A model generated the notes under the pieces. That model worked only from the letters and a program-made list of their open reading frames with translations. It searched no databases and was not told where the DNA came from. DNA of 21,222 nucleotides from Candidatus Vampirococcus lugosii (GTDB lineage Bacteria; Patescibacteriota; Gracilibacteria; Absconditabacterales; Absconditicoccaceae), in contig NZ_JAEDAM010000010.1 of the NCBI RefSeq assembly GCF_018420025.1, positions 1 to 21,222 of the forward strand, written 5' to 3'. Numbering within the stretch: the stretch's first letter is position 1; each line of letters starts with the position of its first letter. Shown piece after piece: positions 1,266 to 21,016 of the stretch. A program made the translations under genes and the position numbers.

Positions 1266-1775
1266 ATGTTTAAACATATGGAAAAAAATAATAATGAAAT
1301 TAAAAAAAGAATATTTGTATTTTTATTTTTAATTATATATTTGTCATCTTTTTTGTTAAATAATTTTATATTTTTTTTGTGGTGAAATGTTTCTGCTTAT
1401 ACTCCCAAAGATACTAATAATAATTTAGTTGCTGTTTTGGTCGATTCAGATATTTATAATTGATGAGTGTGAAACGATATTAAACGGTATGCTCAAAATT
1501 ATATTCAATGATCTATTTCGGATAGTAAAGCTATAATAATTCCTGTTAATATTGATAATTTTACTGCTCCTGATATTGTAAAAATATTGCAAAATTTGTA
1601 TTTTGAATGACAAAAAGATGCACCTTCATCTTTGATATGAACAATTTTAATATGAGATATACCTTTACCTGTAGTTAATAATAATAAATTTATTTATCCT
1701 AATATTTTCCCTTATGTGAATTTTGAAAAAAATAAATATGTATATGATAATAATACTTGATTTTTTTGTAAATAA
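1266..1775 (+). CDS. N-terminal segment of the giant surface protein (signal anchor plus start of an alpha/beta domain), ending in a frameshift-induced stop
   Basis: The frame with position mod 3 = 0 runs ATG 1266 (alternative ATG 1278) to TAA 1773-1775 with TGA as Gly. It reads MFKHMEKNNNEIKKRIFVFLFLIIYLSSFLLNNFIFFLWGNVSAYTPKDTNNNLVAVLVDSDIY...LIGTILIGDIPLPVV...YVYDNNTGFFCK*. The basic N-terminus followed by a hydrophobic stretch of about 22 residues indicates a signal anchor. Confidence 0.7.
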
Positions 1776-4700
1776 TTGAAATAAAAGTTCTACTCCTGAT
1801 ATTTGGCATTGATTAATAAGATTTGATTCAAATAGTGAATATTCAGATTTCTTTAATAAATTAAAAAATTATTCATCTGATCCAGAATCTTATGTAGATA
1901 AGAAATTTTGGTTTGAAGATTTTGTAATGTTGCAAGATTATTTTAATGATCATAATCTTTCATATTATCTTAATAATTTTATTTTTATGGAAGATTTGAT
2001 ATATAACAGATATACAAATTTATTATTAGAGGTCTTACAATGAGGTTATATAAATAATCTTACTAAAAAAATAAATGATTTTGATTCTTGAATTGATGAT
2101 TTGAGACAGAGAGCAAATCAAAATATGGAATGAAAATGAGAAACTTTTAAAAATTTATCTGATGAATATTTTGATCAAGCTGAACATATATCTTCTTTTT
2201 TTGAAGAGGAAGAAGTAGCAAATGCAACAAAAGATTCATGATGAGTACCTACTTTGATGGTAAGAGAAAATGTAGAATCATTATTTAAGTCTTATAATGA
2301 AGTTTTTGGTCAAACATATTTTTCACAAATGAGAGATAATGTTTTAGCATCTTGAAGATGGGATACTGAAGATTTATGAAGTCATGTAGATAAAATATTT
2401 GTTCAAGATCAAACTTCTCAAGAATTCTTATATAGTATTAATGAATCATTGGAATCTGCTGTTGATGAACAAGTGGCAGAAGAAGAATATTATATGACTA
2501 TTCCTGTCCCTAGTTTTTATATAGAAGATGAATTTGAAGAAGATAAAAAAGAATTTGAAAATTTTTATTTTGGTAAAGCACTTACTGAAATAATTTCTGC
2601 TCAAGATTTTTCAATATTTAATTGAAAATTTGGTAATTATTCTATTGAAGATTTAGATTCTTATTCTTTACAAGATCGTGAAGAATACGAACATACTCAA
2701 TCTATTGGTTCTACAACTTGAATTTTGGATGCTCAAGTTATAGCAAGTAGATGATATAATTTGTCTATTGCACAAGAAGAATATGACCTTTATGAAAATA
2801 CAAAAAGATGATGAGAAAATGAACAAGAACGGGCAGAAAGACGATGGTGATGAGCATCTCCTCTAAATCTTGATTATGATCAATTTCCTGATTATATTCT
2901 AAAATCTTTTGATAGATATAATACTTGGAATCCATATTGGAATAGAAATATATGATGAACTATATATGATGTAGCTTGATCTATACAAATTGATGAAGAA
3001 GAGGAAGAAGCTTATTCATACTTATGATATCCTAAATATTCTACAAATGTAAGAGTTAAAGAAGATGATGAAGAAATAGAATATATAAAAAAATGAAATA
3101 CTAAAGTAAATAAAATAAAAGAATATTCTGAATTAGATTTTTTTAATGTTTATACAAAAAAACCTCAAGATTTTAATACAGAACATTTTCCTTTGCCTAA
3201 TATGATTCCTCCTAAAGAAATGATAATCGGTCTTCATAATGCTGAACAAGAATTTTTTGATTTTGAAAAATGATGAACAGAAATTGATTATATTGATCCT
3301 AGTACCGTAGTATGATCTTGAACTTATAGTGAATGATATTCAATTTGAACTTTTGAATGATTAAAAGATGCACATTGATGAAGTTCTAATTGTGTTGATA
3401 ATTCTTCTTGTCCTTATGTTTGAGATCATAGAGCTGATGAATTTAATGATTGATTTAATGATTGATACAATAAATGATTTGATTATATGAATTGATATTT
3501 GGATTGAGTTTCAGATTGAGAATCTGATATTTGATGAACAAAATATGATTCAAAAAATATTCCTGATTGAGCTTCTTCTGATTATGTTCTATGATATGAA
3601 GAATGATATGAAGATTGATATCATGATTGACTTTTGAAAAAATTTAATTCTGAATGGGATGATGTAAAAAATGAACATGATTGAGTGTTTGATCCATTTA
3701 TGTTTGGTATGTCAGATGAATTTGATATTAATGTTTTGGGTTTGCCAGATCCTGATATGATGGATATTTATAATTATTTTTATGATACTATAGAAACTAG
3801 AGTTTATAATAAATCTGTAACTAAAGAAAATCTTTTGTTAAAAACTCTTACTACAGTAAATAGAGCAATTGATAGTTTTAGAAATATGACATTTAAATGA
3901 GTTTGATGAGATGTAGTAGAATTTTTCTATCCAAATGTTTTTGAAACAGAATTATATAATGATTTATGAGATACTTTGGAACTTAAAGATTATGATTCTA
4001 TAAAACCTGCTGTTGAATGATATTTAAAATGAAAAGTAGATGAGTATAATGATATATTAAATGAAAATTGGGATAATAGATTATTTGAATATTCTTCAAA
4101 TATGATGGCTTATGATTTGCTTCATCAATATGATCCTATGGCTATGCCACTTTATCATGATTATGAATGAATGTGAACAACTCCACAAGCATGTCATTTT
4201 TTTGATGATGATTATGAATATGTAATTTGGCAAATTTCTGAATATGATGAATCTTATATAAGAAATGATATGTTAGATCTATTAGCATGAGATGTTAATT
4301 ATTTTAATACTTACCCTAATAGAAGTTGAGATTGAACGACTCATCCTGATGATATTGATGAGCGACCTATAGAAGATGTTGTTGAATATATACTTGATAA
4401 TTTTAGTTTTAAAATTGATTATTTAAAATATCATTATGCATCTACTTATCCATGAAGAGTTGCTTGACAACTATCAAGTGATTTAAATTATTATAATCAA
4501 TCTGGTTGTTATACAGAACATAAATATGAATTATTTGAAGAAGATCATTTTATAGATACATTATGAGATGAAAATATACAAAGAATAGTTGATAATTTAT
4601 ATTATATTAATATGTGATGGTCAACTAGAACTAAACAAGATAATGTACTTGATAATTTTGATCAAATAAAAAAAGATTTTAATATTGATGAAAAAATAGA

Positions 4701-7700
4701 ATATATATTAGATATGCATTTGGAAAATGATGCAAATGATGATATTGTCTCAAATCCTAATTATTGACAAAATGGTTATGAAGTATGATTTATATCTTCA
4801 AATTGAGCTGATAGTGTTTATTTATGAGCAGATGATGAATGATATTGAACTTCATTACCAGATGATCTTAAAGATTTACAAAATGCTATTTCTTCATGAA
4901 AATCTTGATCTTCAGGTGAAGATTGATTTGATGATTTTAATATAGAAAGTAATTTATCTACTATGCTTTGATATTCAGAACTTGAAGAACAGTGTTGAGT
5001 TCCACCTGGTTGAGCAGTAGATCTTTGGGAATGGCCATCTGCTTTTACATGTTGGTTAAATGAAACATTATCCAAACCTGTTTCAATAGAGTTTTCAAAT
5101 TCTTGTACTATGGGACCTAGTTTTGAAGATTTATGAGAAACTTATGATACTGATTTTTATTCTTCATCTTGATCTGATTGAGATTTTAGTAGTGATGAAG
5201 ATGATTGAGATGATAAAAGTTTTGCTGATAATAGTATTTATTGAAATTCTTGATGAAAACTTTCAAATATAGAAATTGAAACTCCAACTGATACTTTAAT
5301 TAAATGATGACAATTACCTATACAATTAAATGCTTTTGATGAAGATACTAGACCAATGTGAATGACAGTTCCAACTTATACTTTGTCAATTCAAGATGAT
5401 GAATGAAATGTGCTATGAAATTTTTTGGCTTGATGAAATTCTTTTGAAAAAATAAATGTAAGTAATTTTAATTCTTATTATTTATTTGATAGTTCAGATA
5501 TTCCTGATAATTTAGATTCTGTAAATATAGTTTTGGAAATTGATCCTTTTTATGAAAATTTTGATTATCCTCAAAAGATTGAAAAAACTATAAGTCTTCA
5601 ATGAGTTTCTTGACCTAGTTTGGAAGATATAGAATATACTTTACCTAACTCTTTAGATGAAATTTATAATCAAAATGATTCTTGAAAACCTATTCCTATA
5701 GAATCAAAACTTATTCCATATTCAATAAATATATGATCTAGTATTTCTTCTCCAGTTACTGTTTATTCAAAAGATAAAACACTTTTGGCTTGAGAAATAA
5801 AATCTAATTGAGAATTTGAATTTAAAGAAAATTTTGTTATGGAAAATTGACAATTAGATTTTTATCTTCATCCAAGTTTTAAAGCTTGAGAAGATATTTT
5901 GATAGTAGATATTCCTTGAATTTGAGAATTAAATGCTAATATTTTGATAAATCCAGCTTCTATATATTCTTTGAATTTAAGTGTTGAAAATCCTTCTGTA
6001 GATGCATGAGATATTAATATTTGAAAAGTTGTATGAAAAGACTATTGGTGAAATGATGTAAAAAATTGAGGTAATATATTAGTTGAAGTAAGTTGAAATG
6101 CTACAATTCAATGAAATAAATCTACTACCGTTAATTCATGACAAAATTTTCAAATTAATACTGATAAACCTGGTGGTAAAGTTTATCTTACTGCCAAAAT
6201 AGATTGAAAAGATTTGGAAACTTATATTCCTGATTATATATCTTTTTTGGTTAAAGATACTACTTGGTGGGAAGAATGAAAAGATATTAATGTTATGTAT
6301 TTAAGTCTTTTTGGTTGAGATTGGGGAAATCAATGGGGATATTTTTCTGATAATAATAAATTTATGCAAAAAATGTTTTCTAGTTCTTCAAAAATGTTGG
6401 CTTCTACAACTATGCTTGTTGATCCTGAAAATATTAAGAAATTTAAATATATAGTATATCCAGATCTTAGTATAAATAATGTTTGAAATTATAAAAATAA
6501 TATTTCTATAGATAATTGAAATATTTATGCTAATTTATATCATAGAAATTGAAATATTTGAAAAATAAAATTATTATCTAATTCTGCTAATATACAAGTT
6601 TCAAGTGATTGATTTACTACATTTAGTTCAGATTGAATTTATTATGTTCCTGATAGTTTAGATTATAGAATTAATTTAAATGAATTTAATGATTGAACTC
6701 TTTTTATAAATAATGAAGAAGTTTTAAATTTACAAAATTGATTTATTCATAATGATTTGTCAATTTCTCTATCTGATAATTTTGAAAAATGAAAATCTTA
6801 TTGGGAAGTTAAATACAAAAATATAAATGTTTGAAAATTATTTTTTCATAAAAATTCTAATACTTATTCTTATTCTGATATAGAAAATTATGAATGACAA
6901 TTAATTACCGATATGTTTGTTTCTTGAAGTACTAATAGAAAATGATGAGTTTGAGTTTATGATCCAGATTCTAAGTTTTCTGAAACTAAATCTTATGATA
7001 GTATTGAACATTCAGATGATGAAAATAAAGATATTGGTACTAGAAATAATTTTGCTAATATTACAAGTTTTGCTAATTGAAATAATGTATGAGATGCAAG
7101 TAAACATTTTGCTTCTGAATTTGTAATTAATTTTGGTGATCCAGTATTATCAAGAATTGATAAAAATGATATTATTGATAATACAAATTACGATTCTTGA
7201 ATTTGAAAAAAAGTTTTTTCTGAAAGTAATGAAAGTATATTTAAAGTGTCAGATATAAATTATGATAGAAGTTGAAGAAAATGATTGGCAATTGCATATA
7301 GAAATTGAACAGTTAGATTATTAAAAAATTATGGTTGAGATGAACCTTTTGTTGATATGTGAGATCTTATAGTTCTTAGTGATTGAATAAAAGATTTTTA
7401 TGTATGAGATACTAATTGAAATTGATATGATGATATTATTGCCGTTACTAATAAAGATAGAATAAGAGTATTTGAAAATAATGATTGAATTATTCAAGCA
7501 AATTGAACTCCTGTTTGTTTAGATGTTCCTGGTTGACCAGAAGATTTTAGTATGGTAAATCAAATGTTTATTGAAGATATGAATTGAGATTGAACTGCTG
7601 ATATTGTTACAGTTGATAAAAATTGAGATATTAAAGCTTTTTATGATGGTTATCTTTCTGATTGAAAACTTTCTTGTCAAGATTGATGGCAAGATAATTT

Positions 7701-10700
7701 GGAACAAGAATTAATTGAAAGTTATGGTTTAAAAATTACTGATGAAAAATTTTATGATGATAGTTTGATGCATTGGAATACATTGGTAAATGAAAATGTT
7801 ATGGAAATTGATTTGGATGATGATTTATGTAAAAGGGATATTAATGCATTACAAAAATATATGAATCTAATTGATTCAGATAGTTATTGAACTAGAAATC
7901 AAATACAAAATATGATTAATTCTGAAAAAGATCTTACTAGTAATTTGAGTTATTATGATTTTGGTGTTTTTGATAATTTTAGGAAACAATTTGATATTCA
8001 AAATCAAATGTCTAAACTTTATATGATTGCTCAAGATGAATGAGAAACAGAATTTTTGAGAAATATTGAATATTGTCTTCCAATATCAAATAGCTTTAAT
8101 CATACTATTTGTGAAAAAAGTGAATCTGAATTAGAATCTTTATTTGAACAATATATTGATGATTGACAGTTTAATTTGGCATTAGAAGTAGCTTTTTGTG
8201 AATATGATGAAGATATTTGTGATGAAAATAAATCTTTTGAAGAATTGATGCAAGATTTTGATGAATATGTAGAAAATGAAGAAAATGAAGATGCTATTGA
8301 AGTTGTATCTTGTACTTATGATGAAGATTTTTGTGATGAATATACTGATGAAGAAATTGAAGAAAATATGAAAAATCTTGCAAGTCAAGATGATGAAAGA
8401 CTTTATTCAAAATTTTTGGCATGTAAAACTTATTTTGACCACTATGATATATCTGGTATGTTTGGTGATAATTTTTTGGATGAAATAAAATATGAAATGT
8501 TGTCAAATGAATTTTTACCGATGTATTATAATCAATGGGATGATGATTTTGTGTATTATATTAAATCAAAAAGAGCTTGATTAGATGATGTAGATGAAAT
8601 TGAATTTTATAAAAATTTTGAAGCTGAAAATGAAGATATACAAGCTTGAGATGAAATAACTGTAAATATAAATATAGTAAATAAATCAAATAAAACAATT
8701 AAAGCCACATATTTGGAAAATTTGATGTGACCTTGGTCTATACTTAGACAAGAAGATGATAGTATATATTGATTTGATTTATGAGCTTTAAATGATGATG
8801 TTGTTATAAAACGGAATAATATACAACCATATCAATTTCAAATTGATAATATAAGTTTAAATCCTTGAGAAACTAAAACTTTTTCATTTCCAGTTATTTA
8901 TCAATGATTTGATTCTTTAAATGTAGAATTAGATACTATATGAAGTAATTGATGAAATTGATGATGATGAAATTGATGATGATGAAATTGATGATGATGA
9001 AATTGATGATGATGAAATTGATGATGATGAAATTGATGATGATGAAATTGATGATGATGAAATTGATGATGATGAAATTGATGATGATGAAATTGATGAT
9101 GATGAAATTGAGGAAATTCAAATCCTAGTCTTAAAGTTTATTCAGATGATCAGTGTATGCAATGATATGATTTACATACTAATTCATGATGATGATTTTC
9201 TTCTGAATTTGTAAATACTGGTCAAGAATACGAAGATTGGTTAACTGAACAAGAAGAGCTTGCACAAGAAGTTTATGATGAAATGGAAGAAAAAATGCAA
9301 GAAATTAAAGATTCTGGTGATCTTGATAATTTTGATTATATAGAGTCAATGAACTCTCGGTCAACTAAAAATGTTTTAAATTCTGATAATCAAATTAATA
9401 TTGATATTTTTGAATGAAGTTTATCCGATAAGTGGAGTGATTATGAAACTATAGTTGATGGTTTATGTGGTTGATATGATTTTTCAGATTCTAGTTGTGG
9501 TTTAAATATTCCTATAAATAGGGCATTTTTTGCACCTTGATTTTATCAATCTTTTGTTTGTGTGCCATTGCTTGATAGATGACTACCAGTTTTTTGGCGG
9601 CCAGGTACAGCACGGAAGAGTTGAACTCCAGTTCCAGTTCCTAATGGAGCACAAAGTTTAGATGATCCTATACCAACTTGATGAGTTTATCCGTCTGCTG
9701 TTAGATTTTATGTTTCACCAACTTTGACAGGTAGTTTATGATTTGCTATTTGTGTATGATCATATACAGCTTGAATGACTATTCCGCCTCCTATGTGAGT
9801 TGTTTCTTGAAATTGTGTTGTTACAGCAATTAGTTTACCTTTATCTTGTGATAATGATGAATGAAATTGATGATGACAAGATCCAGATTGAAATCCATCA
9901 GATGCAGTTGTTGCAGATTGGCAATTTGATATGTACAAAAATGGTCAATGTAATGAAGATTTTTGACATTGAGATAGAAAAACATCACCAGCAAGTATAT
10001 GATCTACAAAAAACAATATTCCATGAGATTTATCATGAGAATATCTTTGATGACTTATTAATTTTGAGACAAAACCTAATAATGTTAATTTATCAAGTAT
10101 GGCGGATAATATTGGTTTGGACACTACTGAAATTAAATGAAAATGATGATTTACTTTAAAAATAGAATGATGATCCGTTAGAGGAATTATTCAATGTATT
10201 ATTGAAAAATGGATAGATAAACAAATAAGATATATTATAAATAATCTTACACAGATGACTATCTATATTTATTTACCTGATCTTAGTCAAGTAAGTGAAT
10301 GATTTGAAAAAGTTAATATTGAAAATTTTACAAATATTATTAGTGATGTTAATAATAGAATTGATTGATTATTAAATTCTATGTCTAATCCAGAATCTCC
10401 TATTGATTATTTACCATCTCAAGAAGTATATAGAAATTTATCTCAAACTGCTAGCAATCCTTTTGATGCTATATCTACTTTATTTAATGATATACCACTT
10501 ATTAATTTTGAAACAAGGAATATTTCTATACAAGTTCCTATGATATCATCTGAAGAAATTGAAAGATATCTTACTTATCTTAATTGACGGTTGGATAGAA
10601 ATAAATGAATAGTAGAAGAATGGACTAATATAACTGATAATGTTTCTATATGAGTCGATGCTAATGAACTTATAAATTCAGTAGAGAAAAATATAAAAAC

Positions 10701-13700
10701 TTTACAAGAATATAAAGATTTCCCAGCAAAATTATATGATTATATTCATATAATAGATAGATATCTTGCAGAATTAAGTTGTATAATAGAGACTTTTATA
10801 AATTGAATTGTTAATCGGCTTGAACAAAATGCAGCAAGATTTGAATCTTGGGTAGATTTTATTATTTTAATGATTGCTGTGATAGAAACTTGGCAAGTTT
10901 TGATTGATTTTTCTGTAAATTGGAGACAAAAATGTGCAGAATGTAGAGTAGATACTTATGACTTTTATTCTTGTGCATTAGGTTTGTTATGTATAGATTT
11001 ACCAATATTGCCTATACCTCCATTTAGACTTCCAGACATTATAATTGATTTATCTCATATTGATTTATCTGTAGATGTTTTATTACCAAGATTTAGATTT
11101 GAACCTATATCTGTTCCTTTACCAGAAATTCCAGATATTCCAAGACCTCCATCTGCTAATTTAGATGTAATTTTACCTAGTATACCAGAATTACCAGAAC
11201 TTCCTGAATTACCAGAAATACCTTCTTTTTTACCTACTATAGAAATAGAATTACCTTTATTGCCTCCAGCTCCTAAAATTCCTGAAATTCTTCCTCAGAT
11301 TGAAGTTATTGTTGATATTGCAGAATTTATATGAGAATTGTTATGTATTATTAAAGCATGAATTGGTATGGTTGCTGAATGGAATGTTAAAACTAGAATT
11401 GAGCAACTTACACAGAGAACAACTAGGGTTGATCCTTTTGATTCTTTAAAAACTACATTTCCAGATCCTCCATTGAAAGGTTTTGATATAAGAATTGATA
11501 GTTTTGTTCAATTACAATTTGAATTTGAAGAAATATATAATTTTGCAAAAGATTTAGCTGATCAAATAAATGAGCAAACTAATAAGCTTTGAGAATCTGT
11601 TCAAAAAAATAAAATTGAATTTGAATGATTTGAATGACTTGATGATTATGATAAAACTATTGATTTGAATTCTTATAATATAAATAAACCTGATATAAGA
11701 GAACAAGATAATTTATTTGCATTTGATGAAAGCTCATATGATTGAAGTATTCCTTATAAAAAAGCTTTTTCTTCGTTGAGAAGTTGACTTATGTATTTTT
11801 ATGAACAATGATATAACCTTGAAGCAACTCAAAAATCTAAAGATATAATTGATATGCTTGATACTGATACTTGAGTTAAACCAAATTATAAATGATTTGA
11901 TAAATTACAAAGTTCTTTTGATGAAGTGATTGAAAATGAATATGATTATTATGAAGATATTCTTTCACAAGTTTCTGATTGGGATTCATTTATTCAATCT
12001 TTAGATTCAAATCTTTTGATAAATAATTCTTATGAAAAAAATTATTCATTATGAGTAAATTTGTTTGATTGAAATCAAGATATAGTTGATAAAATATCTT
12101 CTCAAAAAAATCCTAAAGCTGAATATTTGGATATGAATATGCAAATAGTAGATGGTATGCAAAATGCTTTGGCAAATAATACTCCAGAAAGTTTAAATAT
12201 GGACTCCAAAACATATAAAAAAACTAATATGTATCTATCATCACTTAGTGAAAATATAAAACAAGTGAGACCACATTTTGAAGATGATATTCCTTTATCA
12301 AATTGAAATTCTGCTCCACAAAATAATGAATCAAATTCTAGATTAAATCTATGAGATTCATGAGTGGAAAGTGTAGATCCTAGTCAATATATGAAATGAT
12401 TTTTTGTTCAATGAAATGATTGAAAATATCATAATGTTGTAAAATGGAAAGAAAAAGGTGATGAAATATTTAAAAATTGAAATTATAAATTTGTTGATAT
12501 AAATGCTGATTGATGAAAAGATATTATTTTATGGGATGATAGTAATGTTTATATTAAATATTATGATCAAGAAGATTTTCATAATGAATGAAATCCTAAT
12601 TATAATACTGATCTTTATGAAACATTTTCAAATTTTAATACAGTTGATATTCTTAAAGCAAGAACTAATGACGATTGATATCGTGAAATAAACTGAAAAC
12701 TTTATAAAATTTGGTCAGATGAATATTGAATAAATAATTTTAAGAGAAGTTGACAGACATTACATAATGTTAGTTTTGAATGGGATTCATATGATAATGC
12801 AGATTGATATCTATTAAAATTTACTCAAAGAGTAGATTTGTTCCATGAAAAATATGACTTTTCTTCTGATAGTTTTGAAGAAAAATATGTTCTTTTGCAT
12901 CCTGATTCAGATTTGAATGAACTTAATATAAATGATAAATGAAATTTAAATTGAAATATTAATGAAATTATTGAAAATAATGAAATAGTTATGAATAGAA
13001 CTTTTAAATCAGATTCAAAAAAATTGAGTATTACTTTGGATAATAATGCAGTTGATGATAGATGGAATTATATAAAGATTATACCTTTAAATTTGGATTG
13101 AAATCAATTAAGTAAATCTTGACCTCGGGTAAATCAAGAAGTTTGATGAGTTCAAATACGGTCAGATATAACTTCTCCTTCATTATCTCCTAATATGTAT
13201 AAATCTGAAGAATCAATTTCATCATTAGATGATATGCAAGATCAAGAATTAATATCTAATTGAAATTTTATGGTTTGATATATAAATACTAATTATGATT
13301 TAGTATTTGATTGGGAAGATGATTGAAATATAAATTCTATGTCTATATCTAGTGAATGAAAATCTTATTCAAGTTCTTGAGCTTGAGATAATTGAATATT
13401 TTGAAAAAATGTAATATTTGATGAAGAAAATAATGCTATAATTATATCAGATTTATTTATAGATCAAGAAAAAACTATAAATTATAATATTTGATCTGTA
13501 GATTCTGCTTGAAATATTTCAAATAGAAATTTACAAGTTAAAATAAAAGTTCCAAGTATTAAAATTGATTCTGTAGAATCAGATTGAACTGCTATTGAAG
13601 TAATGGGTAGTTTATCAAATAGTATTGATGAATGAAAAGTTGGAATACAAGTAAATAGAAATTGAGTATGGCAAGATATTGAATCTAGTCCAGATTGAAA

Positions 13701-14205
13701 TTATTTATTTGATTTGGATGAAAATTGAAAAACATATAATGCTTGAAATTTTGTTCAATCAGAACTTATATGAATGTATCATAATGAAGAAAAAATATGA
13801 AATATTGATATAGAAAATGCTAATATTAAAATATTTGATGAGTTTGAAGATGATTATGAAACTTGAATTCATTTTAGAAATTCTGTCCCTACTATTTTTA
13901 TAAAAAATGATAATTCAGAAATATTTAATATTGTATTACCTATATCCGATTTGATTGATGTAGAAACAACTAGTTGAGATTATGAAATTAATCAATTGTC
14001 AGCTCTATATTCATGTGTTTATAGTAAACAAAATAATGATTGTGTTATTTATTATGATATTAATTGAAGAGTTGTATCAAATTCAGATTATTATATTACT
14101 TGAGAATATAATTTAAAATCTAATGGACAAATTGAATATTATATATATAATAATGAATGAACTAAAATAGTTAACTTTTTATTAGAATTATGAGATTTTA
14201 AATAA
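1714..14205 (+). CDS. Giant acidic exported/cell-surface protein (main body, about 4,160 codons) with FG-GAP/VCBS repeats, a poly(NGGGG) linker and a Pro-rich module; function unknown
   Basis: Line-by-line hand translation shows frame 1 (position mod 3 = 1) has no TAA or TAG from 1675 to TAA 14203-14205. By extrapolation from hand-counted lines it contains a few hundred TGA codons. The six frame-1 pieces in the supplied ORF track (3685, 7699, 8176, 10381, 10870, 11368) are collinear fragments of it. The first in-frame ATG is 1714 (others at 1738 and 1744), but the real N-terminus is probably 1266 in the upstream frame. Joined length is about 4,312 aa. Confidence 0.85.
1761..1767 (+). other. 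T7 homopolymer at the frame change between the two pieces of the giant gene
   Basis: Removing one T turns tga ttt ttt tgt aaa taa into tga ttt ttt gta aat aat tga, which joins frame 0 to the 12.5-kb frame-1 ORF without a stop. Confidence 0.6.
8947..9111 (+). repeat. Perfect 15-bp tandem repeat (aattgatgatgatga)x10 with partial units at both ends, encoding (NGGGG)n
   Basis: There are 10 exact units at 8956-9105, with partial units at 8947-8955 and 9106-9111. In frame the tract reads G S N G G (N G G G G)x10 N G G N S. Confidence 0.95.
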
Positions 14206-14235: not shown

Positions 14236-15036
14236 ATGAAAAAATATATATTATTTTGATTAGTATTTATTTTTGGAACTAATTTAACTTGGTGAGCTCT
14301 TTCTATTCCTTATGATTGTTGAGTTGTAAATCAAGAAAAAGATAGATATATGGAAATGTTTGAATCATTAGATAATGATATTTTATCAGAAGCTGAATTG
14401 GAACTTGCTTATGATAATCTTAAAGATTTTTGTTGTTCCAAATCTTATCTTGAAGATGATTGCGATTCTTGAGAGAGTAAAAAGTATCCTGAATCTCCTT
14501 ATTTATATGATCATATTGTAGATATATGATTTAGAAAACTTGATTGAGAAGAAGAACTTTTGTATGATTGAGTTGAACTTGATGAAAAATGACAAGAACG
14601 AAGAGAAGAAATAAGAGAATTGGCAAATAGTGAAGATATTGTCTCTCCACAAGTTATTAATAATACATTTGATCAATATTGGGATGTATGATGAAGTGAT
14701 TGAATGTATAGAAAATATCAATTACTTTGTAAAGAATCTTGACTTGTTCAAACTAAAGTATTTAGTATTTTTTCAGATGATACATCAGTTTCTGAACTTA
14801 CTAATGCATGTAATTGAATGTTGCAAGATCGTGTAGATAGAGAACTTACTTATGTTAAGTCTTTGATGAATGTTAGATGAGATCATTTTATGACTACTAA
14901 TTTGATAAATTACACAGATAAATATTTTGCAAGAAATAGATGAATAAGTTTATTGGAAAAGCTTGTACATTTTGAAGCACTATTATTACAAGTTACAAAA
15001 AAAGTTAATGAATGAACTCCTCAATGTTCTGGTTAA
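14236..15036 (+). CDS. Secreted Cys-containing protein of unknown function (266 aa)
   Basis: Frame 1 runs ATG 14236 to TAA 15034-15036 with TGA as Gly, checked codon by codon. The N-terminus MKKYILFGLVFIFGTNLTWG/ALS looks like a Sec signal peptide. The gene starts 30 nt after the giant-gene stop. I recognise no family. Confidence 0.75.
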
Positions 15037-15064: not shown

Positions 15065-16471
15065 ATGAAAAAATTTATATTATTATTAATAATACTATAT
15101 AATATTACTATAAATAATATTTATGCATCTGATGAAGCATGTTTCAATACTCATCCAGAAATTAATGAATATATTGATTCTATGAGAGAAGTTATAAATA
15201 GTATTGAATGAAAAGATTTTTCTTCAGAAGAATTGTGATGAGATAGTATATCACAGTTTGGGCAAGGATTTTCAGATGTTAGTAGACAACTTTTAAGATG
15301 AACATATATGTCAGCTATTGTTATGAAAAACATAACTTTGGATGCTGTTTGATGACAATCATTTACAAATTTAAAAATGATTTTTAATTCGGGAGTTGCT
15401 ATTAGAGATTGGAAATTACTTTTGTATTTGGAAAGAGATCTTTCAGATAAAGCACCAAAAATTTGATATGCATGAATTCTTGGAGAAAAAATTAAAAAAG
15501 ATGAATATGAACAATATCAAGAAATTTTGGAAGAGATATATATTATTGATAAAATATCGTGATGGGACCAGAATATTACTTATTCTGATCTTTTACAATT
15601 TATTTGGAAATTTAATACTTTTTATAAAGAAATATATTTGGATGCAGTAGGACATAATAAACCAGATTTTAGCTTGGAAGAAATGGCAAATAAATTATTT
15701 AGAACTACAAAACTTAAAGTAGCAGAAATAAATAATGATGAATATCAAGAATTTAAAGAATATTATAGATTAGCAGTAGGATCAGATAATATTTGTGAAG
15801 ATAATTATTCAGAAAAGTTTTTGGAAAATATACAAAAAATTACTTGAAATTCTGCATTTGATTGATGATCAGCTTTGGATAAATTTTCAGAATCTTGGCT
15901 TTTACTTCAAGAAGTATTGAATGATGTTAGAAGTTCTTGAGAATTAAGTAGAGAATATGAAGAAAGAAAAGAAAAATTACTTAAAAGACATTATGGAACA
16001 ACTTTGGCAAATGATTTAATGTCTTATGAATGAACTTGGTGAGTTGGTATGACTAGAGATACTATTAAAAATGAAGTTTTGGATCCATTAGTTTCTTTTG
16101 TAGATAAATTGGAATATGTATCAAAAACTACCGAAGCAACGGATGAAGTTACTAAAGAACAAGTTGAGGAAAGTTTACAAAATAAACAATCTCGTGCAGT
16201 TGCAAAAGAAGCTTTTAGTGCTGAAATGACAAATACTTTTGATACAATATTAAGTATGCAACAAGAACAATTTGTTGAATCTACATTACAAGATCCTAGA
16301 CCAATTACTCATGAAATTCCGTTTTTAAGTAAAAGAGTTTATGAATGAGTAAAAGTTTTATGAGATAGATGAAATGCTGATACTATCATTTATAATCTAG
16401 GTAATGCATGTCAATATCAATGTGTAAATCATTGAAATCCTTATTCTGATTGTTGGTATGATAATAAATAA
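15065..16471 (+). CDS. Secreted protein of unknown function (468 aa)
   Basis: The mod 3 = 2 frame runs ATG 15065 to TAA 16469-16471, checked codon by codon. It contains the track ORFs 15638 and 16049. The signal peptide is MKKFILLLIILYNITINNIYA/SDEAC and the C-terminus is Cys-rich (NACQYQCVNHGNPYSDCWYDNK). The gap to the previous gene is 28 nt. Confidence 0.78.
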
Positions 16472-16499
16472 GTTATTTATTTTAAAAATAAAAATAAAA

Positions 16500-17741
16500 A
16501 TGATAAATAATTTCTTTAAAAAATTTTATGAAAAATATTTTAGTTATGTATTTTGGTGATTATTATTAGTTTTTGTAGTAATATTTTTTGTATTATTTTT
16601 TAATAAAGAAAATATTACAAATGATGAAAAAGTTGTTGCTCAATGAGATGACTCTAATATAAAATCTCATGATTTTGTAAATATTTTAAATAAAAATTTA
16701 GCGGATAAACAAATTACTAATAAGAAATGACTTATAGAAAATTACTGTAATACTATATTTAGTGATGAGCTTGAACTTATTGATTGATTTCAAAATATGA
16801 CTTTTTATTATACTCCTAAAAAATCTATTTTTTTACATGCATTATGTTCTCATTTGGAAGATTTTGATGAATCAAAATTTGATGAAACTTTTTTGAATTA
16901 TATTAATGATTGATATTTGGATGATATTTTGGACGAACCAGCTTGTGAATATGATGAAGAAAATGATATGAGTTGATGTAGATTTTCTTATTTTTTGCCA
17001 AAAATATTTTGAAATATTATAAATGAAGTATCAAATGTAAAATTAGCTAGTATATTAGGTATTTCTGATGAAGATATAGATGATTCAATTGAAGAATTTT
17101 CAAATATTTATTTTTGAGAATCTGAAGATATAGGCTGTGATGGTAAATATTATTTATATAATCAAGATATTGATGATTTGGAAACTATGCATTGTCAACA
17201 TCCAGATACTTATGAATATTTTTCCAAATATTTACAAGAGATATTGGAACTATTAACTTCTTCAAAAATATTAAATCCTTTTGAAATAATTGAAGCAGAA
17301 GTTGAAAATGAAGAATGTCAATTAAATTTTGATTCTGATTTAATTGTTTGTTCTTTACTTACTAATGATTATCAACGGGAAAATTTAAAAAATTTATTAT
17401 TGAATGAATTAATGTTTTATAATTTATTTATTACATATTTTCTTCAAAATTGAGATAATTCTTCTGTTACAGAATTTAAAGTTTGAGCAAATATAAGTGA
17501 TAATATTAAAGATTTATGAGCAGAAATAAAAGCTCTTGAAAATGAAATCTCAGTTTCTCAAGAATCTATAAATAGAACATGGGATATGTTGCAAAATATT
17601 TATTTTACTTTCCCAACTCATATTTGATTTATGGCTTATAGAGAAGATTTAATAAGATTTAGAAATGAATTTGCAAAAGTTTATACTCCTATTCATCAAA
17701 TGTATTCTAGATTTAGGAATGTTCAAGATACTAGAAGATAA
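16500..17741 (+). CDS. Signal-anchored (type II-like) acidic Cys-containing protein of unknown function (413 aa)
   Basis: The mod 3 = 0 frame runs ATG 16500 to TAA 17739-17741, checked codon by codon. It contains track ORF 17178. The N-terminus MINNFFKKFYEKYFSYVFWGLLLVFVVIFFVLFFNKEN provides one TM helix. The gap to the previous gene is 28 nt. Confidence 0.78.
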
Positions 17742-17767: not shown

Positions 17768-19681
17768 ATGAAAATAAAAATAAAATTTATTTTATCATTG
17801 ATATTAATTTCTCCTATGTTTTCCAATTCTTTTTCTTTAAAAGAATATTACGAAGATGAAACAAAAGATTATGATCAAGATTCTTTGCTTGAAGATCATA
17901 ATGAAAGTTCTTTTTTATGAAATATTTATACAAATTCACATAATTTGGTGAGAGAAACAAAATTAAAATCTGAAAAAGATAGTTTTTCATATGTTGTTGA
18001 TTATCTTTCTGATATGTATTCTTGTAGTGTATCTGAAGATGATATTTATAATATTTATTCTGTGTCTAATCCTTCTTTTGTTTATATTCAATCTTGAATG
18101 GATCCAGATTCTCAAATAAGTACTGATAAAGATGATTTTATAGAATCTTGTAAAAATGTAGTTAGGTGTTTCGGTGACAATAATGTGGATGCTATTGAAT
18201 GATATACTCAATCCACTAGAAATTTATGTACTAGTAAAGTAAATAGTATAGTTAATTCTTCACAAGATAATATAAGTAAAAATGAATCTATAAAATATGA
18301 TAATTCTTGATCCGATATGTTTATGAATTGAAGTTTGGAAAATAGTCCTTTTGATTTATTAGTTGATATAAAAAATATATGAGACACTCTTTTTGAAGAT
18401 AATGAAGAACCAGAAGAAATTAATTTTTATGAAACTGATTCTTGATGAAATTCAGATTGATCATCTTGATGAGATCAAACTTTATTAAATAAAACTTTAT
18501 TAACTCAAAATTTATGAAATAAAACTTGATTAAATTCTGGTTTATTGACTACTAATTTGTTAAATTCAAATTTATTAGCTTTAAATTCATTAAATTGAGA
18601 TTGAGAAAATCAAATTCCTAATGATTCTGTTTCAAATGGTTTAATAAATAATTTTGTTTGTAATGAAAATATTGATATAGTTAACCCAGAACAAATTTAT
18701 GAACAAACTAATAAAGATATAAATCAAAATTTAGAAGATATATCAAATGCACATGATGATCTCGTATCACAACTAACACAAAATGTACCAAGTAATGATA
18801 TAGATTTTGCATCAGACTGATCAGCTCAAGCTCTTGATAATTTTTTATGAAATCAATTTGAAGAACAATGATATGCAATTACTAATCCTGGTTGATGAAA
18901 TTGAACTTGAGATTTAACTTGAACATCTCCATCTCCTATTGATGGAATTGATCATAATAGTTTTGTTTCAAAGATAGGTTGAATGTGATTAACTGATTGT
19001 ATTAATGCATGAGATAAAGATAGTATATTTTGGATAAGAGTTTGTATGGTATATACAGAAACTACTTGAATAGTTGATCAAAAAACTATTATGGCAAGTG
19101 AAGAAGCAGTAGATGAAATTAATAATGTTTTATTAAATTTGAAAAGGACCTGATCTATTATGAAACATAAAAAAACTGATGAAATGCGGGAAATTGGTCT
19201 ACAAGATATAGAATTTAGTAAAATATTTGCTTTTGATTTAGTGTTAAAAACTAAACCAACATTTCCTTGAGATGGAAAATATAAAGAAGAAGCAAGAATA
19301 GCAGTTATTGAAGAAAAAAATAAAGAGTTTGAAAAAAAAATATTGAAATTATCAGAAAGTCCTGATCTTAAATCAGAAAAAAATAAATATTTAGTAAGAG
19401 CAAATCCAGCAAGGATGGAATGAGAAACTAGAGCTTGATGAGATACTTCAAATAGACAATGAAATATTGATTATTTGTCTTCTTCTCAAGAAGATATGAA
19501 ATTAGATCATGAAAAAGTATCATCAAATGAAAATGAATCTTCTATGTATGAGTATATGGATATTTTCCATTGATTTATAGAATTTAATCATGATTACTGG
19601 GAACAAAAAAATACAACTTTACATTCAATTGAAGATATATCTAGATGATTTAAAGAAAGAGTTGTTAGTTGAGGTTGATAA
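17768..19681 (+). CDS. Secreted protein of unknown function with a Leu/Asn pentad array (637 aa)
   Basis: The mod 3 = 2 frame runs ATG 17768 to TAA 19679-19681, checked codon by codon. The signal peptide is MKIKIKFILSLILISPMFSNSFS/LKEYY. The gap to the previous gene is 26 nt. Confidence 0.78.
18479..18598 (+). repeat. Eight imperfect 15-bp (pentapeptide) units
   Basis: In-frame reading of 18479-18598 gives TLLNK TLLTQ NLGNK TGLNS GLLTT NLLNS NLLAL NSLNG. The period is 15 nt and Leu sits at fixed positions. Confidence 0.5.
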
Positions 19682-20089: not shown

Positions 20090-21016
20090 ATGTGATTTTG
20101 ATGATTGAGAGAAGAAATTAGAAGTAGCTTTGGTCTTGATGAACAAGAAGAAATTAAAAACAATGAAGAAAAAGAAAATTGACAAGAAAAAAATGAAGAA
20201 ATTGATTATTTTGACTTGCCAGAAGAGGTAAGAGAAGAACTTGCTAATGATTTTTTTGAAAATGTAAAAGATAAAATACAAGCATCTCAAGATGATATTA
20301 AAAAATTTGCAGAAGAGGAAGCATGATTGTTTTGATTATGAGAACAAAAAATAATAAATGAAATGAATCAAGAGATAATGGATTTTGTAGTACAAACTAT
20401 TTCTTGAGAATGATTTGATTCATATCAACTTAAAAATTCTTTATCTATAGATGATTATTTAAATAATTTAGATCAAGGTATACAAGAATTAATAGAAACT
20501 GGTTCCAAAAGTGATTTTGAAATATCAGATAATCTTAAAAATGAAATTAGAAATTATTTATGATGAGATAGTATTGATATTTCAATAAATGAAGCATTAA
20601 ATTCATGAAATGTGGAATGATTAGATGAATTACAATTTTCTAAATCTAATATAGAAGAGTCTTCTAATTTAATTTTTGAAAATATAAAAGATAAAATACA
20701 AGCATCTCAAGATGATATTAAAAAATTTGCAGAAGAAAATGCATGAATGTTTTGAGCATGAAAAGAAAAAATAGCAGATGAAATGAATCAAGAGATAATG
20801 GATTTTGTAATGCAAACTATTTCTTGAGAATGATTTGATTCATATCAACTTAAAAATTTTAAAAATATAGATGATTATTTAAATAATTTGGATAAAGGTA
20901 TACAAGAATTAATAGTATATGGGAATATAAATGATTTTAAAAATTGAGAATCTAAAAAAGAAGATGAAAAATGGGAAGAAGAATATTACTCATGAATTTT
21001 TAATCGTAATGAATAA
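20090..21016 (+). CDS. Acidic protein with an internal 140-aa tandem duplication and no signal peptide (308 aa)
   Basis: The mod 3 = 2 frame runs ATG 20090 to TAA 21014-21016 with TGA as Gly, checked codon by codon. It reads MGFGGLREEIRSSFGLDEQEE... and starts 20 nt after the previous stop. Confidence 0.7.
20253..20495 (+). repeat. Copy A of the intragenic duplication (period exactly 420 bp)
   Basis: 243 bp align without gaps to 20673-20915, with about 21 mismatches by hand count (about 91 percent identity). It encodes FENVKDKIQASQDDIKKFAEEEAGLFGLGEQKIINEMNQEIMDFVVQTISGEGFDSYQLKNSLSIDDYLNNLDQGIQELI. Confidence 0.9.
20673..20915 (+). repeat. Copy B of the intragenic duplication
   Basis: It encodes FENIKDKIQASQDDIKKFAEENAGMFGAGKEKIADEMNQEIMDFVMQTISGEGFDSYQLKNFKNIDDYLNNLDKGIQELI. 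The offset from copy A is exactly 420 nt, so the reading frame is preserved. Confidence 0.9.

Follow-up and report, generated by a model that had tools for sequence, protein, structure and literature searches.

A giant, frameshift-split gene of Candidatus Vampirococcus lugosii belongs to a conserved Patescibacteria family with a proposed role in prey contact

How do bacteria that belong to the Candidate Phyla Radiation (CPR) hold on to their hosts and feed on them? This is an open question, for which almost no molecular parts are known. The DNA analyzed here (the window) is a 21,222-bp contig of Candidatus Vampirococcus lugosii (Absconditabacteria). An earlier note made from its sequence alone (the original prediction) had placed at 1266-14205 a single gene for a giant surface protein of a predatory CPR bacterium, and this last guess was right. 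The gene takes up about 1% of a genome of about 1 Mb. It is already catalogued as VAMP_16_20, listed as a 'hypothetical protein' of 4163 aa and the longest of ten giant proteins, which were inferred to be membrane-located, to be the source of the fibrous cell surface and to act as host-recognition factors (PMC8080830). In the literature we found no analysis of VAMP_16_20's family, domains, partner genes or neighbours. What kind of protein is it, and what does it do? On balance we favour the view that it is the V. lugosii member of a conserved Patescibacteria family and would serve as a giant, Sec-exported, envelope-anchored fibre for prey contact, a function that we infer from its domain layout, relatives and gene context.

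The answer begins with the reading frame. With translation table 11 the longest open reading frame (ORF) called across the 21,222 nt did not exceed 176 aa. When TGA was taken as sense, a 4,177-codon open frame appeared at 1675-14205 on the top strand (frame 0). This frame forms the body of the gene and stops at a TAA at 14203-14205. The start at 1266 belongs to frame 2, which opens at 1221 and is closed by a TAA at 1773-1775, and the span 1266-14205 is 12,940 nt long, which is not divisible by 3. The predicted giant gene is real, but a frameshift splits it over two frames, and the N-terminal motifs described earlier as one segment straddle an extra T:

1266..1766, top strand: 5′ segment of the giant gene in frame 2, with the signal peptide and the first half of a gingipain-like domain
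1761..1767, top strand: T7 homopolymer with one extra T, shifting frame 2 to frame 0 (frame analysis, relatives' sequences)
1768..14205, top strand: body of the giant gene in frame 0 (open-frame translation)

Removal of one T joins ...YDNNTGFF to VNNGNKSSTPDIWHGL..., and the intact-frame peptide across the junction reads ...NNTGFFVNNGNK... The gene repaired in this way encodes 4,312 aa (487 kDa, pI 4.2) with 739 D+E against 320 K+R. The picture of an acidic, exported, modular giant protein is thus borne out by its pI, signal sequence and domain layout.

The repaired protein has many relatives. A word-indexed search found 84 giant homologues of 3,900-5,900 aa. An exhaustive search with a profile of the conserved core described below found 738 cluster representatives at E ≤ 1e-3 (clusters defined at 50% identity), 376 of them at E ≤ 1e-30; save for fragments, nearly all core-bearing representatives are 4,000-6,000 aa long. 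A pattern-limited scan of species-representative genomes, made with a short five-sequence core alignment, located 59 species-level loci with one copy per genome. These loci fall in Absconditabacterales/SR1 (including the human oral taxon HOT-345), in Gracilibacteria and in metagenome-assembled genomes labelled Peribacteria. The original prediction had allowed for a gene without homologues; they proved abundant. The window protein, once its frameshift is repaired, has the layout of the family, with a collinear N-terminal domain, FG-GAP block and Cys/Pro-rich helical core.

Distant members in standard-code Patescibacteria carry SLH and Ig-like domains. In one of them, P0077, the SLH domain lies at residues 4467-4509, and in standard-code relatives it sits in the C-terminal part. 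The presence of such domains in these relatives speaks independently for a location of the family at the cell wall or surface. A Pfam search for SLH (PF00395) found none in the window protein, and the domain was undetectable in its code-25 relatives.

The same homologues bear on the soundness of the contig. That the 12.9-kb gene is an assembly chimera could be argued from the amplified DNA and from a 162-nt perfect repeat that exceeds the read length. The repaired protein is, however, collinear end to end with the independent homologues P0002, P0003, P0004, P0008, P0022 and P0065, and a near-identical fragment is present in an independent Logan assembly. As the protein is collinear with more than 80 homologues, the gene is not chimeric, and a chimeric join inside 1.3-14.2 kb, which had been named as a possible flaw, can be regarded as exceedingly improbable. 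The Logan fragment (P0225, from a 1,947-bp contig of an independent public run) encodes 536 aa near-identical to residues ~2664-3205, with few substitutions; it spans the core and not the 5′ end of the giant gene. Because it comes from an independent run, a second V. lugosii-like population has been sampled.

What is the extra T? All 40 fetched loci that cover the site encode both halves in one frame, most of them without a long T run, and in every close homologue the signal sequence and both halves of the N-terminal domain lie in one ORF. The related locus L001 has AAC TTTTTT ATA, an in-frame T6, where the window has TGA TTTTTTT GTA. As none of these 40 loci is interrupted, the break is confined to this contig and cannot be counted as a conserved programmed frameshift. 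A slippery UUU UUU U, with a stop codon two codons on, would suit programmed +1 frameshifting of the ribosome or slippage in transcription at the T run; the single-frame junctions of the relatives, mostly without a long T run, argue against it, and no stimulatory element was seen, although none was looked for. Judged from the sequences, this mechanism appears disfavoured and very improbable.

The extra T might instead be a real change, so that this V. lugosii population carries a pseudogene, or a gene switched off by slipped-strand mispairing at the T run. Homopolymer tracts in surface-protein genes are classic switches, T7 is what the deposited sequence contains, and both public annotations accepted the split. 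If the T is real, the body has no signal peptide, the protein is not exported and the gene is off in this strain. Against this, 4,145 conserved codons stay open past the break in a genome of 25% GC; because they are open and conserved at the family level, any inactivation must be very recent. The tract at 1761-1767 is not special, being one of 18 A7/T7 runs in the gene, and no relative has a break here. The template, moreover, was amplified from very little material: V. lugosii DNA was obtained from about 10 cells by multiple displacement amplification (MDA) or by MALBAC (amplification cycles based on multiple annealing and looping) and sequenced in 125-nt reads (PMC8080830). A search of metagenomes for a second copy of the frameshift site, with T6 or T7 allowed, gave 0 matches. 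Overall, the extra T is most probably an amplification or assembly error, which we judge likelier than a true mutation; a real frameshift is possible but rather unlikely.

The break has shaped the public gene models. NCBI gives WP_213348475.1 (4,153 aa, ATG 1744) as an 'FG-GAP repeat domain-containing protein', and the authors' model VAMP_16_20 (MBS8121701.1) has 4,163 aa from ATG 1714. Both start inside the body, so that the signal peptide is missing from them, as are the ~160 residues with which the N-terminal domain begins. The 5′ piece was deposited apart as a 165-aa hypothetical protein (MBS8121698.1 / WP_213348473.1) running from ATG 1278 to the TAA at 1773-1775. The same 165-aa fragment (1278-1775) is labelled 'CHASE2 domain-containing protein' in UniRef100_A0ABS5QKJ2; this label looks spurious, because the Pfam scan of the region gave Peptidase_C25 and no CHASE2.

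The reading of TGA was examined by codon and alignment. The repaired gene contains 303 TGA, 48 GGN and 42 TGG codons. Positions coded by TGA are Gly in 47% of homologue cells, compared with 47.5% at positions coded by GGN (homologues rendered with W at these sites were left out), and positions coded by TGG align to W/Y/R/F. Because TGA positions match Gly just as GGN positions do, code 25 (TGA = Gly) is confirmed, in agreement with the original prediction, and the linker unit described below is AAT(TGA)4. Public homologues (P0002-P0010 and many more) have often been deposited with TGA as Trp (code 4) and contain ~8% W and <1% G; for example, LIGTILIGD was deposited as LVWTVLIWD. Such entries hide the conserved glycines and weaken homology and structure searches for the whole family.

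A Pfam scan of the whole protein gave 0 matches; scanning in segments brought out the C25 and FG-GAP domains. The N-terminal region comprises:

1266..1397, top strand: probable Sec signal peptide, aa 1-44 (hydropathy, homologue N-termini)
1407..2076, top strand: gingipain-like (C25-like) alpha/beta domain, aa ~48-270, with the frameshift inside it (Pfam, Foldseek)
2077..3126, top strand: conserved, helix-rich acidic N-terminal extension, aa ~270-620 (conservation profile, alignment A1)

The signal peptide begins with a basic N-region, which is followed by hydrophobic residues at aa 16-34 (Kyte-Doolittle peak 2.15) and then by VSA/Y, and the N-termini of homologues have Ala-rich (AxA-like) ends at the same position. 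A hydrophobic export signal is therefore present as proposed, although it looks more like a cleavable Sec peptide than a signal anchor; from these sequence features aa 1-44 are a probable cleavable signal with a putative cleavage site at VSA/Y.

The adjoining domain matched Peptidase_C25 (PF01364) with 26.6 bits (cutoff 23, E 4.6e-6) over aa 100-240, corresponding to profile positions 45-173 of 374. This match spans the junction and appears only on the frameshift-repaired N-terminus. His181 of the PDIWHG motif is invariant in family alignments of 27 and 44 sequences. The N-terminal domain of an intact homologue, P0014, was modelled with AlphaFold2 (AF2) as a stand-in for the window protein (predicted local distance difference test, pLDDT, 82.6). 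Foldseek with this model returned nothing at E ≤ 0.001; the top probabilities, 0.99 and 0.98, belonged to gingipain R (RgpB), with E 0.065-0.074 and a TM-score of 0.39. Searches of the Protein Data Bank (PDB) with the N-terminal sequence and with an N-terminal profile gave nothing meaningful, and NCBIfam had no match to the N-terminal domain. The likeness to the non-catalytic part of peptidase C25 noted earlier is supported by the Pfam score and by the fold ranking.

Could this domain be an active gingipain-type cysteine protease directed against the prey envelope? A match above the gathering cutoff and gingipain R as the highest-probability fold would suit an enzyme. The match is, however, limited to about a third of the profile, no Cys is present in residues 1-600 of the window protein, and neither alignment A1 (27 sequences) nor A3 (44) has a conserved Cys column in the domain. 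Without these cysteines the domain cannot be a Cys/His protease. That identity was rejected as the catalytic Cys is absent, and protease activity can be given next to no credence. Judged from sequence and model together, the module resembles a non-catalytic gingipain scaffold rather than an enzyme. Searches for Walker A and HExxH motifs found neither in the repaired protein, consistent with the earlier claim that it has no enzyme signature. The extension at aa ~270-620 had no Pfam or PDB match.

A conservation profile of the window protein was built on 83 homologues. It divides the middle region into conserved and variable parts:

3214..3816, top strand: Asp/Gly/Tyr-rich low-complexity region, aa ~650-850, lineage-specific (almost no homologue aligns)
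5764..7866, top strand: conserved beta-rich block, aa ~1500-2200, ending in FG-GAP/VCBS (50-80 of the 83 homologues align)
7408..7608, top strand: FG-GAP_3 / VCBS-type repeats (PF13517 in 3 stretches)
8656..8901, top strand: 'CARDB-like' strand segment, aa 2464-2545 (conserved only in ~15 closer homologues)
8950..9111, top strand: (NGGGG)n linker, a perfect 15-nt repeat (AAT TGA TGA TGA TGA) x 10.8 (Tandem Repeats Finder, 100% matches, score 324)

The FG-GAP/VCBS repeats seen by eye were confirmed by PF13517 at 29.1 bits (cutoff 26.9); PF01839 reached 19.6 bits, below its cutoff of 22.1. They contain the Ca-loop-like motifs DTNGNGYDD and DMNGDGTAD. The evidence for a complete, seven-bladed beta-propeller consists of the three matched stretches and three Ca-loop motifs, one of which lies 1,600 residues from the others. 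In the distant homologue P0077 Ig-like Pfam domains (Big_1, Invasin_D3, Glyco_hydro2_C5) stand just upstream of the FG-GAP repeats.

Residues 2200-2650 are variable and include an acidic stretch with Cys residues, together with the 'CARDB-like' segment and the NGGGG linker. All motifs quoted in the original prediction lie where it put them (CARDB-like strands at 8656-8901, the NGGGG linker at 8947-9123, VDSAGN at 13498-13515). The CARDB assignment itself did not stand: the strands are present, but no CARDB match was found on this segment in Pfam even at E ≤ 10. Among 84 family members only the window protein has the NGGGG linker. The copy number of its 15-nt repeat is unreliable, since 162 nt exceeds the 125-nt reads, and it may be a variable-number repeat. 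A search for internal repeats in the repaired protein found none at E ≤ 1e-3. A repetitive adhesin was considered as an identity for the giant protein and ruled out on the same result.

The part that defines the family lies downstream of these variable segments, and is followed by a moderately conserved C-terminal region:

9430..11526, top strand: family-defining core, aa 2722-3420 (conservation, profile search)
9430-9852, top strand: Cys/Pro/Gly-rich subdomain of the core, with an invariant R, PT.T and two Cys
10549-10947, top strand: long helices of the core, with a hydrophobic segment at 10849-10911 and a conserved CxxC
10996-11286, top strand: proline-rich LPxxP region of the core, with >10 invariant prolines (...LPxLPPAPKIP...)
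11614..14202, top strand: C-terminal region, aa 3450-4312 (conservation profile)
12490-12534, top strand: a further FG-GAP-like Ca loop in the C-terminal region
13498-13515, top strand: VDSAGN motif in the C-terminal region

After the proline-rich stretch the core ends with an amphipathic helix and an IEQxTQRT motif. Its GC content is 0.355 compared with 0.248 over the whole giant gene, as expected from the GC-richer core noted earlier. No match to the core was found in Pfam, NCBIfam or (with a core profile) the PDB. An AF2 model built from 18 sequences had a pLDDT of 47, and only the helices at aa ~3082-3211 reached 64-84. The predicted hydrophobic helix is present as a segment; in this low-confidence model it is not a helix of its own but the end of a helix of ~100 residues. 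The C-terminal region had no family match in Pfam or NCBIfam. The suggested Ig-like segment there could not be upheld: VDSAGN is present, but no Ig-like Pfam family matched the window protein at E ≤ 10.

Is the giant gene accompanied by others? Four genes follow it in the window, and each was looked for in the 59 species-level loci:

14236..15036, top strand: accessory gene A, 266 aa, Cys-rich, with a signal peptide (directly after the giant gene in 46/59 loci)
15065..16471, top strand: accessory gene B, 468 aa, with a signal peptide (within ~10 kb in 11/59 loci)
16458..17741, top strand: accessory gene C, 427 aa, with an N-terminal hydrophobic anchor (within ~10 kb in 27/59 loci)
17768..19681, top strand: accessory gene D, 637 aa, with a signal peptide (within ~10 kb in 28/59 loci)

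Of the four, gene A shows the tightest linkage to the giant gene; homologues of B-D are at times inverted. All four are syntenic in L001 at 45-51% identity, gene B being 51% identical to its counterpart. None of the four had a family match in Pfam or NCBIfam. Profile-profile comparison related gene C to the second downstream gene of standard-code loci (81.8% probability, E 1.1e-5) and gene D to the third (93.5% probability, E 2.3e-7). These links mark the giant gene, together with some or all of its partners, as an old conserved module. The start of gene C (ATG 16458) overlaps the end of gene B (stop 16469-16471) by 14 nt, and the other gaps in the cluster are 18-29 nt; the short gaps and the overlap suggest a single operon that comprises the giant gene and its partners.

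In three of four standard-code relatives (L004, L066 and L067) a type IV filament operon stands immediately upstream of the giant gene. This operon contains weakly PilN/PilO-like genes, a T2SSE ATPase and a T2SSF platform gene, with 1-3 N_methyl pilins in two loci. The locus is conserved over ~25 kb:

L004 3887-29323: conserved standard-code locus
L066 3658-28346: conserved standard-code locus
L067 3762-28983: conserved standard-code locus

It holds PilN-like, PilO-like, T2SSE and T2SSF genes, up to 3 pilin genes and the gene of a giant SLH protein of 4,700-5,100 aa. Four small exported proteins are encoded after the giant gene, similar in size in L004, L066 and L067.

This arrangement raises the possibility that the giant protein is a PilY1-like pilus adhesin, or a substrate or partner mounted by the filament machine. 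Minor pilins followed by PilY1 are a known gene arrangement, which the standard-code loci mirror, with the giant gene placed directly after the operon of T2SSE and T2SSF, and with N_methyl pilins in two of them. The type IV pilus repertoire of Vampirococcus is also rich (PMC8080830). No such adjacency was seen, however, in the window, where a transposase remnant stands upstream, in the code-25 loci L001, L005 and L006 or in the standard-code L068. No pilin gene is present in the window, the N-terminus of the giant protein carries no prepilin motif, and no PilY1/PilC match was found in Pfam. We consider a partnership with a type IV filament machine improbable.

The remainder of the window contains other features. 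The transposase remnant (307-978, top strand, truncated to 223 aa) lies upstream of the giant gene and corresponds to the C-terminal part of DDE_Tnp_1 (23.7 bits, cutoff 23, profile positions 120-185 of 200); in relatives its position is held by other genes. A 34-nt tandem duplication at 1147-1232 (2.0-2.2 copies, 78-85% matches) immediately precedes the start codon of the giant gene, and it likely falls in the promoter region. The last gene (20090-21016, top strand) encodes a very acidic protein of 308 aa with an internal duplication of ~100 aa, in which the block ...NVKDKIQASQDDIKKFAEE.AG.FG.G..KI..EMNQEIMDFV.QTISGEGFDSYQLKN... occurs twice; no family was found above cutoff for it. All substantial genes are on the top strand, and each 1-kb interval shows a positive GC skew (0.02-0.46), as would fit a contig that belongs entirely to the leading strand of one replichore.

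How might the giant protein work? The signal peptide would direct it through Sec. The universally conserved core would then retain it in or at the envelope, possibly by means of Cys pairs able to form disulfides, a helical hairpin of great length that includes hydrophobic segments, and the LPxxP proline stretch; standard-code relatives would add SLH wall-binding domains for this retention. The Ca-binding FG-GAP repeats, the beta-rich modules and the acidic and NGGGG spacers could project as a long fibre that contacts prey. The gingipain-like domain, its catalytic Cys lost or never present, would serve as a binding or scaffold module and not as a protease, and the four co-conserved exported partners may assemble with the giant protein or help to mount it. 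The cells have a fibrous surface, and giant membrane proteins have been proposed as host-recognition factors (PMC8080830). Vampirococcus and its prey are separated by a gap of ~100 nm (PMC13059738). The host-attachment hypothesis is in line with the genome paper's proposal for its giant proteins.

Several points weigh against a fibre for prey contact. The placement of the protein at the surface or against prey is deduced from sequence features. The window protein itself has no SLH domain, and an anchoring role for the core is a guess because its fold is not predictable (pLDDT 47). The family has been kept in lineages whose hosts differ greatly, and conservation is highest in the N-terminal domain and the core rather than in the modules presumed to bind; a housekeeping role in cell structure suits this pattern no less well than adhesion to particular hosts. 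Finally, if the extra T were real, the giant protein would not be exported in this strain.

Foremost among the rival readings is a structural envelope scaffold, an S-layer-like or wall fibre or a glue for cell stacking, which builds the surface without recognizing prey. A single copy per genome in all 59 species-level loci of a broad family, the invariance of the N-terminal domain and core, the SLH domains of relatives and the conservation of a fixed set of partner genes are what such a scaffold would predict; Vampirococcus cells have a fibrous surface and stack in piles (PMC8080830; PMC12428579). On the other hand, the protein has FG-GAP repeats and variable, lineage-specific regions, as is usual for binding proteins, and no domain that forms a two-dimensional lattice was recognised. 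A scaffold is also compatible with the contact fibre that we favour. As a full account of the protein we regard it as possible, though with the weight of a minority opinion.

A wider interpretation joins these elements. Together with its four exported partners, and with the type IV filament operon in standard-code lineages, the giant protein might make up one undescribed, Patescibacteria-wide cell-contact apparatus on which episymbiotic or predatory attachment, and possibly feeding, would structurally depend, with the core as a new envelope-spanning or membrane-engaging module. We put this forward as speculation, and doubtful in its full extent. As new results, the present analysis gives a corrected gene model, a gingipain-like domain that lacks cysteine, an account of how large and how widespread the family is, a conserved group of four partner genes and a connection with the pilus operon. 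The family offers a testable candidate for attachment, being represented by at least 738 clusters and once per genome in at least 59 species, including the human oral SR1, with fixed partners and, in some lineages, a pilus-operon setting. Two practical lessons follow: a one-base frameshift truncates the public model of the largest V. lugosii protein, whose export signal is lost, and many database homologues are mistranslated with TGA as Trp.

The protein can be set beside five known systems. With gingipain R and the C25 family (PF01364; PDB 1cvr, 4ief) it shares an alpha/beta module that scores above the Pfam cutoff and gives the top fold probabilities; it differs in that only ~1/3 of the model is covered, the window protein lacks the catalytic Cys and the fold matches have weak scores. 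The likeness to integrin-alpha-like FG-GAP/VCBS proteins consists of PF13517 above its cutoff and DxNxDGxxD Ca-loop-like motifs, and is the basis of the NCBI name, whereas the repeats make up ~70 of 4,312 residues and the name covers <2% of the protein. SLH-anchored S-layer and cell-wall proteins are approached by the standard-code family members, which carry SLH, in contrast to the window protein and its code-25 relatives, in which SLH is not detectable. PilY1/PilC adhesins are resembled in the position of the giant gene after pilin genes in two standard-code loci and in the propeller-type Ca-binding repeats; there is, however, no PilY1 family match, the giant protein has four times the size, and neither the window nor the code-25 loci examined show the link. 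The adhesins of type I secretion systems (T1SS) such as LapA, SiiE and MpIBP are huge, acidic surface proteins that contain Ca-binding motifs and are believed to link the cell to a surface or to a second cell. The window protein is likewise huge, acidic and furnished with Ca-binding motifs, but it has no internal repeats (E ≤ 1e-3), carries a Sec-type N-terminal signal in place of a C-terminal T1SS signal, and is a mosaic of unique modules arranged around a conserved core.

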